Under the pieces are notes generated by a model. It saw nothing but the letters and a program-made list of their open reading frames with translations. It ran no database searches and was not told the origin of the DNA. Below, one piece after another: positions 27,409 through 43,412 of a DNA stretch of 64,000 nucleotides. Each line of letters opens with the position of its first letter. Position 1 is the first letter of the stretch. This DNA is from a virus. Position numbers and translations under genes: made by a program. The DNA is taken from the IMG/VR virus record IMGVR_UViG_3300045988_180675, positions 128,001 to 192,000 of that record; one strand, given 5' to 3'.

Positions 27409-27433
27409 AAAAAGAAAACATGCTTTTAGCATG
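27409..27433 (-). terminator. Rho-independent terminator overlapping the pilin stop codon
   Basis: CATGCT-TTT-AGCATG hairpin with the stop codon in the loop, followed on the minus strand by TTTTCTTTTT. Confidence 0.6.
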
Positions 27434-28136
27434 CTTCCTCTTCCTTTTTTGAAATCATATAAGCTCCAGCAGATGCTGTTAACAACACAGCTAGTAATGT
27501 TAATAGGCTTGAGTTTGCACTGATACCTGTATCTGCCTTTGGTTTTTCCTTTGGCTTTTCGCTTGGGGGCACAACAGGTTTTTCGTTTGGAATCTTTTTA
27601 ACTTCACTCTTTGGTGAAATTGTAACATTATGTTTCCACTCACCACTTGTATACAGTGGTAGTGAAACAAGGAACGGCTTAGCAAGTTCATATTTGCCTG
27701 CTTCTCCTTCTGCCTTTGTTTCTGCAACTAAATACATTCCATCTGGTAAATTCGCAAATGTTGCCTGTCCATCTTCATTCGTTTTTCCTGTTGCAACAGG
27801 ATCAATTTTATTTGCTAAAGCAAAAATCTTTTCTGCTGCCTCATTTGATTTCTCTGCTGTCATCCCATCGAAATTGATTTCTGTTTCTTTGTATTCATCA
27901 ACCAGTGTATATGTAGCAGAAGCTGCATTTCCATTGTATGTGATATCAGCAACCTTATAAACTACAAATGTTGCATCTGGAATATTTGTAATTGTAGCTG
28001 TTTCGGAATCTTTTTCTGAGAATTGGATTGTTGCTGTATTTTCCTGTTGTTCTGCCAAAACAAGAAAGCTGGAAGAATTAAATAAGAAAATACTCGTGAT
28101 TCCTGTGATTAATATTTTTTTGAATAAGTTTTTCAT
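27426..28136 (-). CDS. SpaA-type isopeptide-forming pilin subunit (236 aa)
   Basis: Start moved to ATG 28136 (RBS GAAAGGAAAAACG). Signal peptide. ATFVVYKVAD. E-box-like GMYLVAETKAEGEAGKY. PFLVSLPLY. C-terminal KPKADTG + hydrophobic segment + KKEEE sorting-signal-like tail. Confidence 0.7.
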   Translation of the reverse strand: MKNLFKKILITGITSIFLFNSSSFLVLAEQQENTATIQFSEKDSETATITNIPDATFVVYKVADITYNGNAASATYTLVDEYKETEINFDGMTAEKSNEAAEKIFALANKIDPVATGKTNEDGQATFANLPDGMYLVAETKAEGEAGKYELAKPFLVSLPLYTSGEWKHNVTISPKSEVKKIPNEKPVVPPSEKPKEKPKADTGISANSSLLTLLAVLLTASAGAYMISKKEEEAC

Positions 28137-28203
28137 CGTTTTTCCTTTCTGGACCAATGGTTGAGCGTAGCCAGAAGACTACGCTCCCCTTTCATTGATC
28201 ACT

Positions 28204-41802: not shown

Positions 41803-42617
41803 TTTTCCCGTCCTTTCCATATCAATGCAACGGTTATAATACAAGCGAATGTCATAACAATAACAATGCCAGATTCAATCAATGCTGGCTTTATCACATC
41901 ACGCATTGGATCCGTATAGTTTTCTTTTGGTGCAGCCGTTAGATCTACTCTATGTCCAGTAACTAATAACCGATGCGTATTAATACCGTATGGAGTACAA
42001 GTAACAAGTGTAGCGAGATCCTTCCCGTCCTGGATCTTCAAGGCGTTTACTTCAGATGGCAAGACCGTTTGTATATTGTCTACCTCATAAGCCAACTTTT
42101 TGTTGCCAACGGTAATATAGAAGATATCACCTGTTACTAGCTTATCTATATCCGTAAACAATTTTGCTGTTGCAAGTGCCCTATGTCCACTTAGCACTGT
42201 ATGTGTATCTACTCCTCCGATCGGGAAACTTGTTCTTTCGATATGCCCAATACAATTTTCTAACACATCATCTTCTGTACCGTGCTTGATTGGTAGTTTT
42301 ACATTGATTTTCGGAATATCTACATAACCTATTATGCTATTTTTCAGGTCTAAGATTTCAAAATAATTACTGTTCTTCAAAAGAAATTGGTTGCCGTTAG
42401 TTTTAGAATATTCATAAAGTTCTTCGTTATATTTTTCCGCTTCTTTTATTTTTTCTTCTATATCGTTTTCGTGTATAACTTCTTCAGAATAAGAAACAAT
42501 ATCTTTTGCAGCATGGTATTTATTGAGTGTATCCGTTATAGAAGGAATTAAAAGACAAATGATTGCTATATAGGTTAATAAAACAGCACATGTGAATCTA
42601 ATTCTTGTTTGTCTCAT
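41799..42617 (-). CDS. srtC: Class C (pilin-polymerising) sortase
   Basis: N-terminal TM. Catalytic His in VLSGHRA. LATLVTCTPYGINTHRLLVTGHRV (TLxTC Cys plus Arg). C-terminal TM helix typical of class C. Confidence 0.85.
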   Translation of the reverse strand: MRQTRIRFTCAVLLTYIAIICLLIPSITDTLNKYHAAKDIVSYSEEVIHENDIEEKIKEAEKYNEELYEYSKTNGNQFLLKNSNYFEILDLKNSIIGYVDIPKINVKLPIKHGTEDDVLENCIGHIERTSFPIGGVDTHTVLSGHRALATAKLFTDIDKLVTGDIFYITVGNKKLAYEVDNIQTVLPSEVNALKIQDGKDLATLVTCTPYGINTHRLLVTGHRVDLTAAPKENYTDPMRDVIKPALIESGIVIVMTFACIITVALIWKGREK

Positions 42618-42620
42618 AGC

Positions 42621-43412
42621 TTATTTCACCAATTTATAGACCAACTGGATTCTCTCTGTATTTCCTTCTTCGACACTTTTACATGTTGATAATACAGTTA
42701 TCTTATCATTCGTCTTAGGATCATCACCTAAAGTATAATCAGCTTTGTTTTTTAGTTCTGTTAATAGGTTTTGATACTCTAGTGATTCTGACATATATGG
42801 TGTGTTGTATATATTATCGTATGCATCCCCGTTTATCATCGCCCACAACGTCCAGTGTTCTGTTCTGTCTGGATAATACATGTACAGATCTGGATTTGCT
42901 GTACCGTATGCCTGGTCTTGATATCTAGTTAGTGAAGAGAATGCAATTGCTTCTGTATTGGACCAAATTGTATCTGTATTGCTGAACATTTTGTGACCGA
43001 AAATAATCGTGTGCATATCTTCTGGTACATTTGCAATAAATAATGATCCACCAATGTAATAATCCTTGTTAAAATCATGGGTTAAATAAAAATATTGATC
43101 AGGAACTGGTTCCTTCATAACTGGATAATCAATAGGCGTGTTTGGTACTGTAAGCCATGCGTATGTATCTTCATTTTTACTTAATAATGCACCAAAATCG
43201 ATCTTGCGATCCATATAATCATTTCTTACCACATCTTTTCCGTTTGTTTCTTCATTTGTTGCAATCTTTTGTACATCATTTGAGACAGCTGTAAAATGTT
43301 TCTCCGTTTCAAATTCCTTAATTGCCTTATATCCAAAAAATATACTAACACCTATCAGTGCTACTCCAACCGTTTTTCTAACAGCATTTTTAATACTCTT
43401 TTTTAATTTCAT
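42621..43412 (-). CDS. srtB: Class B-like sortase
   Basis: N-terminal TM. YFYLTHDFNKDYYIGGSLF. His in IIFGHKM, Cys in VLSTCKS, Arg in ERIQLVYK. The layout follows SrtB-type enzymes. Confidence 0.75.
   Translation of the reverse strand: MKLKKSIKNAVRKTVGVALIGVSIFFGYKAIKEFETEKHFTAVSNDVQKIATNEETNGKDVVRNDYMDRKIDFGALLSKNEDTYAWLTVPNTPIDYPVMKEPVPDQYFYLTHDFNKDYYIGGSLFIANVPEDMHTIIFGHKMFSNTDTIWSNTEAIAFSSLTRYQDQAYGTANPDLYMYYPDRTEHWTLWAMINGDAYDNIYNTPYMSESLEYQNLLTELKNKADYTLGDDPKTNDKITVLSTCKSVEEGNTERIQLVYKLVK

Follow-up and report, generated by a model that had tools for sequence, protein, structure and literature searches.

Do large conjugative elements of Firmicutes build a pilus of their own? This question is raised by a 64,000-nucleotide stretch of DNA (hereafter 'the window'; positions 128,001 to 192,000 of the IMG/VR virus record IMGVR_UViG_3300045988_180675), in which genes for two sortases, a small pilin and a giant wall-anchored adhesin stand among those of a type IV secretion system (T4SS). 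According to current reviews, Gram-positive conjugation systems encode no pili and depend on wall-anchored adhesins, and the studied examples of conjugative surface factors are few (PrgB, the TIE adhesin of pLS20 and SrtD of pCW3). The original prediction, made from the letters of the window, was that the element may assemble a covalent sortase pilus, tipped by the giant adhesin, for mating-pair formation or stabilisation. Our analysis supports the conclusion that the genes for sortases, pilin and adhesin form part of the conjugation operons instead of constituting a self-contained island. Since no shaft pilin is encoded in the window and the small pilin belongs to a family found in the slot of basal pilins, a heterodimer of tip and base is a likelier product than a long pilus, and we tentatively favour, at less than even confidence, a sortase-assembled two-component surface fibre that would act in mating as an accessory adhesin.

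The window lies within a 199.8-kb metagenomic contig (G+C ~36%), and contigs from other samples carrying relatives of its proteins reach ~180-206 kb; it belongs to a roughly 200-kb conjugative element of uncultured gut or rumen Firmicutes. A megablast search of PLSDB with positions 27000-44500 of the window gave no match, and the best plasmid VirD4 is ~40% identical to that of the window. Readings of the locus as a phage, a chromosomal island or a self-contained pilus island were rejected on account of gene content and split layout. The T4SS is of the CD1110/CD1115 type, comprising VirB4, VirD4, a PrgI/VirB3-like protein, a polytopic VirB6-like protein and a wall hydrolase. No relaxase-family match was obtained among the scanned proteins of the window, which covers 64 kb of the ~200-kb contig, and the relaxase may lie outside it. 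Rfam, at gathering thresholds, gave zero matches in the window.

Sortase, pilin and adhesin genes within the conjugation operons

The genes that carry the argument are the following (TM, transmembrane segment).

42621-43412, minus: class B-type sortase SrtB, first gene of the sortase-VirD4 operon
41799-42617, minus: class C (pilin-polymerising type) sortase SrtC, NF033745 (249.3 bits, cutoff 160), N- and C-terminal TM
40915-41802, minus: RNase_T/DnaQ-like exonuclease (Pfam RNase_T, 5.5e-25), a backbone gene kept in all family members
38916-40928, minus: p203 and p465 (203 and 465 residues), backbone genes directly upstream of VirD4, translationally coupled to their neighbours
36463-38919, minus: VirD4-type coupling protein, NCBIfam CD1115 family NF045973 (435 bits, cutoff 250), last gene of the operon
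28204-36327, minus: giant adhesin of 2,707 residues, putative tip subunit, with four SpaA stretches, three DUF7601 and two DUF5979
27426-28136, minus: small pilin of 236 residues, putative base/anchor subunit, GramPos_pilinD1 (56.8 bits, cutoff 23.1) and SpaA
22902-23327, minus: p141a, three TM, first gene of the p141a-VirB6-VirB3-VirB4 channel operon
21812-22837, minus: VirB6-like polytopic membrane protein of 341 residues, at least five hydrophobic segments, no family match
21383-21808, minus: PrgI/VirB3 (PrgI, 1.6e-15)
18953-21364, minus: VirB4, CD1110 family NF045971 (737.5 bits, cutoff 325)
7772-12358, minus: wall hydrolase of 1,528 residues with a C-terminal NlpC/P60-, amidase-, endolysin-like domain; promoter box at 12386-12396

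All sizeable open reading frames of the window lie on the minus strand, including every T4SS, sortase, pilin and adhesin gene, and the positions and common orientation originally given for VirD4, VirB4, VirB3, the VirB6-like protein, the hydrolase, the sortases, the adhesin and the pilin are borne out by open reading frames and profile searches. The same holds for the class of SrtC. The PDB sequence matches of SrtC are class C sortases at ~1e-50, and the enzyme carries the motifs TLVTCTPY, GHR and RLLV. Although SrtB scores 93.4 bits (1.2e-26) with TIGR03064 and thus remains under the curated cutoff of 153.75, all 15 of its 15 PDB sequence matches are class B sortases (E ~1e-11) and catalytic H, C and R motifs are present (GH, LSTC and ERIQL); judged by these matches, SrtB is probably a divergent class B member.

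The two sortase genes open an operon that runs through the exonuclease, p203 and p465 to VirD4, with intergenic distances of 3, -4, -14, 3 and -4 nucleotides; direct reading of the sequence shows the stop codon of SrtC overlapping the start of the next gene (ATGA). Terminator-like hairpins bracket this unit upstream (43514-43480) and downstream (36439-36410), and its promoter (43473-43444) is sigma-70-like and differs from the box ATAGCATAATA found elsewhere in the window. Of that box there are 10 exact copies, all 10 on the minus strand (positions 7720, 12386, 18850, 23376, 36353, 42330, 48579, 51353, 58616 and 61612); with one mismatch allowed, 13 matches are obtained versus 2.7 expected, and none of 100 shuffles reaches 13. 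The box precedes the p141a-VirB6-VirB3-VirB4 operon (23376-23386), the hydrolase, the topoisomerase and four surface-protein genes, the adhesin (36353-36363) among them. The small pilin gene lacks a separate box and forms a bicistronic unit with the adhesin gene, and a terminator-like hairpin with a T-run follows the stop codon of the pilin (27433-27419). The promoter box family originally proposed to be common to all of these genes is, hence, shared by the adhesin, the channel operon and the hydrolase, and not by the sortase-VirD4 operon. When insertion sequence (IS), recombinase and repeat scars were looked for around both modules, only a TnpB gene (12673-13812) was found, far off.

Some further features of the regulatory landscape may be recorded here. 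A terminator hairpin usually precedes a copy of ATAGCATAATA, and one copy falls within the coding sequence of SrtC. A sigma-70-like protein (2646-3752; Sigma70_r2, with a weak TIGR02937 match) is a candidate cognate factor for the box. Another promoter family, sigma-70-like with an ACAGTAT-containing spacer (27099-27129, 51464-51494 and 43444-43473), is found upstream of p1168, in the region before the topoisomerase gene and upstream of the SrtB-VirD4 operon, respectively. A family of 5' leaders containing TCGCATAATAAATATGACTTTATTTGATGATCATGGAGAA (15773-15912, 44238-44375 and 52765-52859, minus strand) lies upstream of p204, p239 and a Cas_VVA1548-like gene; it has no Rfam match.

The VirB6-like protein of the window matches the protein at the VirB6 position in relatives (L090 and L005; L numbers denote loci of our comparison). 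L005, from a buffalo-rumen Lachnospiraceae metagenome-assembled genome, is the closest binned relative. Throughout this T4SS family, the gene directly before the VirB6-like one, on its upstream side, encodes a small protein of 116-141 residues with several hydrophobic segments (window 22902-23327, minus; L090 13507-13875; L005 12574-12924; L172 8156-8527); it has no family match, and the motif '(G)DGPA' is kept in three of the four copies (window, L090 and L005).

The small pilin, the giant adhesin and their putative linkage

The small pilin begins with a signal peptide, followed by one D1 domain, a tail rich in proline and a sorting signal composed of KADTG, a TM and a charged tail. Its closest solved relatives are the D1 domains of CppA from C. 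perfringens and of SpaD and SpaA from C. diphtheriae, and a Foldseek search with an AlphaFold2 (AF2) model returned CppA, GBS52, RrgB and EbpB, that is, minor or basal pilins and D1 domains of major pilins. Across 17 homologues P175-K176 (VTISPK) is invariant, and the segment aligns with VTINPK of CppA and VTVYPKN of a Vescimonas major pilin. The pilin thus combines a wall-sorting signal with a pilin-motif lysine, and its designation as a SpaA-type pilin stands as regards the D1 domain and the invariant lysine; it needs amending in that there is only the one domain and the sorting signal is the non-canonical KADTG (KA[DE]TG across homologues) instead of LPXTG. A strict E-box was not found in this single-domain protein.

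A lineage-restricted pilin, as suggested by 32 matches in a word-indexed search, was a candidate overturned by an exhaustive profile search: the family is large, with 2,403 representatives at E<=1e-10, mostly of 220-300 residues, which share a PFLVSxP...PK core, a proline-rich linker and a wall-sorting signal (LPQTG or unusual motifs). In the loci L167-L170, homologues of ~330 residues with LPQTG (P0146 and P0150) are encoded between two sortases, after an S26 peptidase, a VWA/SpaA tip protein and a shaft pilin of 523-547 residues. They occupy the slot of the third pilin and therefore the position of a basal pilin; together with the linking lysine, this makes the small pilin of the window a putative basal, or anchor, pilin. 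Proline-rich tails are typical of base pilins such as FctB. To our knowledge, shaft pilins of known structure (SpaA, RrgB, BcpA and CppA) comprise at least two domains.

The giant adhesin, confirmed as a multi-domain protein with a canonical LPSTG motif, starts with ~1,280 residues devoid of a known domain (no domain match for residues 1-1279 even at E<=1), followed by a SpaA/CnaB stalk, a DUF285-like region and a C-terminal part of ~280 residues resembling major pilins, which ends in LPSTGG, a TM and KKKEKN. PDB sequence matches are confined to its C-terminal and CnaB-like parts. Thioester, polymer-adhesin (GbpC/antigen I/II) and VWA domains were looked for in the adhesin and not found; no surface protein of the window has a Pfam or NCBIfam match to the polymer-adhesin domain. 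A canonical YPK-type pilin motif was found neither in the adhesin nor in a second SpaA-domain protein of 1,351 residues. A major-pilin-like C-terminus combined with the absence of such a motif is as expected for a tip subunit.

Further surface proteins, and genes encoded next to them, are listed below; the SpaA protein of 1,351 residues had been missed in the original prediction.

58660-61629, minus: surface protein of 989 residues, KPADTG + TM + KKEK; box at 61612-61622
44376-48431, minus: SpaA protein of 1,351 residues (Pfam SpaA x10, 8.4e-88), PEIGTG + TM + KKKH
43518-44237, minus: p239 (239 residues), between SpaA protein and sortases, with an N-terminal TM, a low-complexity region and a conserved C-terminal domain
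27157-27345, minus: Cro/C1-type helix-turn-helix (HTH) protein of 62 residues, between the pilin and the next surface protein
within 18953-26948, minus: surface protein p1168 (1,168 residues), signal peptide and C-terminal TM, preceding the T4SS channel operon
15913-18801, minus: SSSPR-51 repeat surface protein of 962 residues, IISTG-type sorting signal; box at 18850-18860

Five proteins of the window thus carry a tripartite wall-sorting signal (LPSTG, KADTG, PADTG, EIGTG and IISTG), and only that of the adhesin is canonical. The four non-canonical motifs are conserved in orthologues; EIGTG of the 1,351-residue protein, for example, is kept in six, and the KPADTG signal of the 989-residue protein resembles KADTG of the pilin. 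The gene of the 1,351-residue protein lies directly upstream of the sortases between a ATAGCATAATA box (48579-48589) and a terminator hairpin (44371-44346), and p239 is kept in the close clade described below.

A SecE homologue, likewise missed originally, is encoded at 48625-48819 on the minus strand (Pfam SecE, 36.5 bits, cutoff 22.7), and in relatives SecE or a SecY of 430 residues adjoins the topoisomerase gene (L002 100-294; L003 1437-2729). These element-borne parts of the Sec translocon might help to export the giant surface proteins.

A reading of this gene set can be built on what was observed, namely the genes present with their domains and motifs, the coupling within operons, the shared promoters and the distribution among relatives; from these observations we infer which protein is linked to which, and a role in mating. 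The giant adhesin and the small pilin would be exported by Sec. SrtC would then cleave the adhesin between threonine and glycine of LPSTG (LPST-G) and join the threonine to Lys176 in the VTISPK segment of the D1-only pilin, and the KADTG signal of the pilin would subsequently be transferred to lipid II, for which the class B-type sortase encoded alongside is the most likely enzyme; this sortase may also anchor the other proteins with xxxTG signals (EIGTG, PADTG and IISTG). With the proline-rich tail of the pilin crossing the wall, the outcome would be an adhesin of more than 2,700 residues, covalently attached to the wall and with a swappable central region. As the enzymes are co-transcribed with VirD4, and the adhesin unit shares the element-specific promoter of the T4SS channel, production of the fibre would coincide with that of the transfer machinery, and the fibre would draw donor and recipient cells together in the manner of PrgB in pCF10 mating. 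Involvement in mating-pair formation is plausible.

Relatives of the element and competing readings

Hundreds of metagenomic relatives of the window's VirD4 exist at 42-55% identity, on contigs of up to ~300 kb. A close clade comprises six loci in which VirD4 is 83-100% identical and full synteny is kept. The adhesin varies sharply even among elements with 99%-identical VirD4: residues 1601-2100 (~30028-31527) are hypervariable, with 11-50% amino acid identity in the two most divergent of these elements (L084 and L088). The cassette spans the DUF285-like region, and its pattern resembles the exchange of a ligand-binding module. Between subclades, the block formed by the 1,351-residue SpaA protein, p239, SrtB and SrtC (41799-48431, compared with L085 and L002) is 84-93% identical at the nucleotide level versus 65-82% for the adjoining exonuclease-VirD4 genes, and this break in conservation at the SrtC/exonuclease junction suggests recent recombination or exchange of the sortase cassette.

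The locus L175, to which P0171 led us (its neighbour is a VirD4 fragment), represents a second sublineage in which VirD4 is 52% identical to that of the window. Here, the gene order is topoisomerase, class C sortase, HTH protein, p449, exonuclease, p200, p471, VirD4, small pilin, p274 and giant protein; that is, SrtC lies between topoisomerase and exonuclease, the pilin and a homologue of the giant adhesin follow VirD4, and an HTH gene similar to the 62-residue one of the window follows the sortase. Identities with the window are 41% for SrtC, 39% for the pilin, 28.6% for the adhesin's N-terminal region (E 1e-37) and 30-52% for the backbone. A box of different sequence, TCTGACATATA, precedes the topoisomerase, the p471-VirD4 operon, the pilin and the adhesin in four exact copies versus 0.43 expected. 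A third sublineage (L177) encodes a SrtC homologue and an LPNTG protein with SpaA domains 3.6 kb from VirD4; in this locus, a full IS605 (TnpA and TnpB) is inserted right after VirD4, beside these two genes. The SrtC-pilin-adhesin trio is split around the VirD4 operon in diverged relatives, and it would therefore be old in the family and have been repeatedly lost or replaced. Taken together, the locus and its relatives show a recurrent link of pilus-type sortase machinery with a Firmicutes T4SS that is conserved in operon structure and promoter.

A number of observations weigh against the tentatively favoured mating fibre. The module is absent from L003, L087, L091, L107, L176, L172 and L171 despite the same backbone or T4SS core, and likewise from L090 and L005. 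In L003, L087, L091 and L107 (~50% VirD4 identity), topoisomerase, exonuclease (39-44% identical in these loci and in L175), p203, p465 and VirD4 are kept; a sortase block is missing, and VirD4 is followed by other genes whose products seem to be cytoplasmic. L172 has a compact core (p462, VirD4, a small TM protein, VirB6, PrgI, VirB4 and hydrolase), and the module is lacking also in L176, a closer relative of L175 than the window; there, an FHA-PP2C-kinase set (12999-17587) fills the post-VirD4 slot that is held in the window by adhesin and pilin. The module is therefore dispensable for transfer as such, and is accessory. Identities of 40-47% between SrtC and all comparators make its similarity uninformative on vertical descent versus independent capture, so that SrtC cannot decide on shared ancestry within the family. 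For the pilin, the AF2 model is of moderate confidence (predicted local distance difference test score, pLDDT, 55 overall, 70-85 in the core), and no isopeptide triad was identified; sequence conservation yields K61 and E139, in the close clade only, and no conserved Asn or Asp partner, and of the structural features originally sought in the pilin only the motif lysine, K176, has thus been located. Which substrate belongs to which of the two sortases is a guess, a housekeeping sortase of the host could anchor LPSTG directly, and the host is uncultured. PLSDB contains 655 records with a SrtC homologue, some of them plain cargo, such as an IS256-flanked locus in C. perfringens.

No protein of the window unites a multi-domain shaft, a pilin motif, an E-box and LPXTG, as a shaft pilin would, and this absence bears most directly on the polymeric pilus of the original prediction, in which the D1-only pilin would homopolymerise by attack of Lys176 on the next KADT, yielding a thin shaft capped by the giant adhesin. 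The pilin does have both the nucleophile lysine and a sorting signal, and its D1 domain is closest to those of the major pilins CppA, SpaD and SpaA. Against such a shaft stand the basal slot taken by homologues in three-pilin islands that possess a separate shaft pilin of 523-547 residues, the domain number known for shaft pilins and the proline-rich tail shared with base pilins; furthermore, adhesin and pilin differ in their sorting motifs, which suggests that they are handled by different enzymes. We consider a true polymeric pilus quite improbable. The missing shaft would equally suit wall-anchored adhesins that remain monomeric, with two sortases anchoring the five sorting-signal proteins and the small pilin being an independent short surface protein devoid of pilin-pilin crosslinks. 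Five proteins with xxxTG, TM and basic tail, four of them non-canonical, are what dedicated anchoring sortases would require, and class B sortases alone are embedded in many other, pilin-free CD1115-type T4SS clusters. Yet SrtC is firmly of class C, the class specialised for Lys-directed pilin ligation; the sole invariant surface feature of the small pilin is the PK lysine of its pilin motif, and adhesin, pilin and SrtC co-occur in both sublineages. Purely monomeric anchoring is, in our view, rather improbable as well.

A different objection concerns function. Adhesin, pilin and sortases could serve the host as a colonisation factor (in binding to gut mucus, plant fibre or cells, or in biofilms) and have no role in DNA transfer, the module riding on the plasmid as the pili of enterococcal and C. 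perfringens plasmids do. The many relatives possessing the same T4SS and no module, of a kind that the original prediction had named as a sign of a passenger, are in line with this proposal, as are the frequent occurrence of class C sortase loci as plasmid cargo, the presence of at least six large surface proteins in the window, which suggests general surface remodelling, and the hypervariable centre of the adhesin, which is as expected of ligands facing a host or niche. Against a passenger, the genes do not form a contiguous island: the VirD4 operon separates enzymes from substrates, an arrangement still found at ~50% protein divergence. The sortases are translationally coupled to backbone genes, module and T4SS genes share a box in each of two sublineages although the two boxes are of different sequence, and the IS or recombinase scars that would have pointed to a passenger were not found at the module borders. 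We regard the passenger reading as unlikely on balance, albeit as one to be taken seriously, and the two-component mating fibre remains the explanation that we tentatively favour.

Mobile-element insertions and cargo do occur elsewhere in the window. The TnpB gene mentioned above (IS605 OrfB / Cas12f-like TNB; 12673-13812, minus) is inserted between genes of the T4SS region, with flanks at 12359-12672 and 13813-13996, and other cargo comprises a Cas_VVA1548-like protein of 91 residues (52489-52764), a Ser/Thr kinase (62264-63985) and a HipA-like protein (4042-5316).

Comparison with other transfer systems and implications

In a survey of 98 other CD1115-type VirD4 loci, each of at least 15 kb, a co-oriented sortase reading frame was found within 10 kb of VirD4 in 20. 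Sortases are common beside this type of T4SS, which is in favour of the mating fibre and at the same time shows that the arrangement is not unique. Most of these sortases are of class B and are encoded directly after VirD4 or between VirB4 and the hydrolase; the corresponding clusters of integrative and conjugative elements (L039, L070, L097, L102 and others, where the hydrolase is of the CHAP type) resemble the window in having a sortase gene among those of the T4SS, but contain neither a class C sortase nor a pilin. A complete pilus locus contiguous with T4SS genes is present in two loci of Oscillospiraceae metagenome-assembled genomes (L009 and L064) and on plasmid pMM35_02 of the cultured Vescimonas fastidiosa (NZ_AP023417.1). 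There, an LPXTG adhesin, a YPKN major pilin and two class C sortases are encoded, pilin and sortase genes being co-oriented and contiguous with VirD4 and VirB4 of the same broad T4SS type. In contrast to the window, these loci form a single block with a true major pilin (VVVYPKN, LPQTG/LPKTG), and just 27-40% identity is seen between their VirD4 and that of the window. A further pairing of pilin and sortase with a conjugation-type adhesin is found on the rumen streptococcal plasmid p1_CNU_G6 of Streptococcus equinus (L165), where a major pilin, a class C sortase and a GbpC/PrgB-type adhesin are encoded in a row (10418-15411), ~5 kb from the coupling-protein gene. Classical SpaA-type three-pilin islands (L167-L170; SpaABC of C. 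diphtheriae, SpaCBA of L. rhamnosus) share with the window a tip adhesin, a small pilin of the same family, a pilin-motif lysine and a class C sortase that is 43% identical. They are, however, contiguous and chromosomal and possess the shaft pilin and the S26 peptidase, whereas in the window a shaft pilin is lacking and the genes are split around the VirD4 operon.

Among studied conjugation systems, pCF10 of Enterococcus faecalis likewise has genes of LPXTG surface proteins (PrgB, PrgA and PrgC) inside its conjugation operon, and its adhesin promotes mating-pair formation while not being universal among related T4SSs (PMC12857230). PrgB differs in having a polymer-adhesin (GbpC-like) domain and in relying on the housekeeping sortase of the host; pCF10 has no sortase of its own, no class C sortase and no partner with a pilin motif. 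On pCW3 of Clostridium perfringens, a plasmid sortase, SrtD, encoded in the extended tcp conjugation locus is needed for efficient transfer (Revitt-Mills 2021, cited in PMC8225981). SrtD is of class D, however, the coupling protein is the FtsK-like TcpA and not a CD1115-type VirD4, and no pilin with a pilin-motif lysine is known from pCW3. The TIE adhesin of pLS20 from Bacillus subtilis (gene 34) is a large multi-Ig-domain adhesin, also encoded in a conjugation operon and needed mainly for matings in liquid (PMC8092201). It contains a thioester domain, lacks a sorting signal and is sortase-independent, whereas the adhesin of the window has LPSTG, no thioester match and dedicated sortases. With regard to a role in mating, SrtD and the TIE adhesin are precedents. 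Full-text literature searches yielded no paper on a class C sortase or a pilin inside a T4SS operon. The window thus appears to vary the known theme of sortase-dependent conjugative adhesins, here predicted to take the form of an adhesin-anchor pair rather than a shafted pilus.

It is tempting to speculate, although we hold this broader proposition to be unlikely as it stands, that widespread elements of ~200-300 kb in uncultured Clostridia recruited a class C sortase and a D1-only anchor pilin into their coupling-protein operon in order to make a covalent, cassette-variable giant adhesin fibre as a dedicated mating-pair formation organelle. If this were true, then, together with the Oscillospiraceae plasmids carrying shaft-pilin genes beside VirD4, it would mean that some Gram-positive T4SSs encode conjugative pili after all, sortase-assembled and not based on VirB2. 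If the fibre mediates donor-recipient contact, it would constitute a new class of mating-pair formation device and hint at what determines the recipient range of large plasmids in gut and rumen communities; the central region of its adhesin is exchanged between elements that are nearly identical elsewhere. K176, SrtC and the variable cassette would then be concrete targets for understanding how Gram-positive donors find their recipients in liquid.

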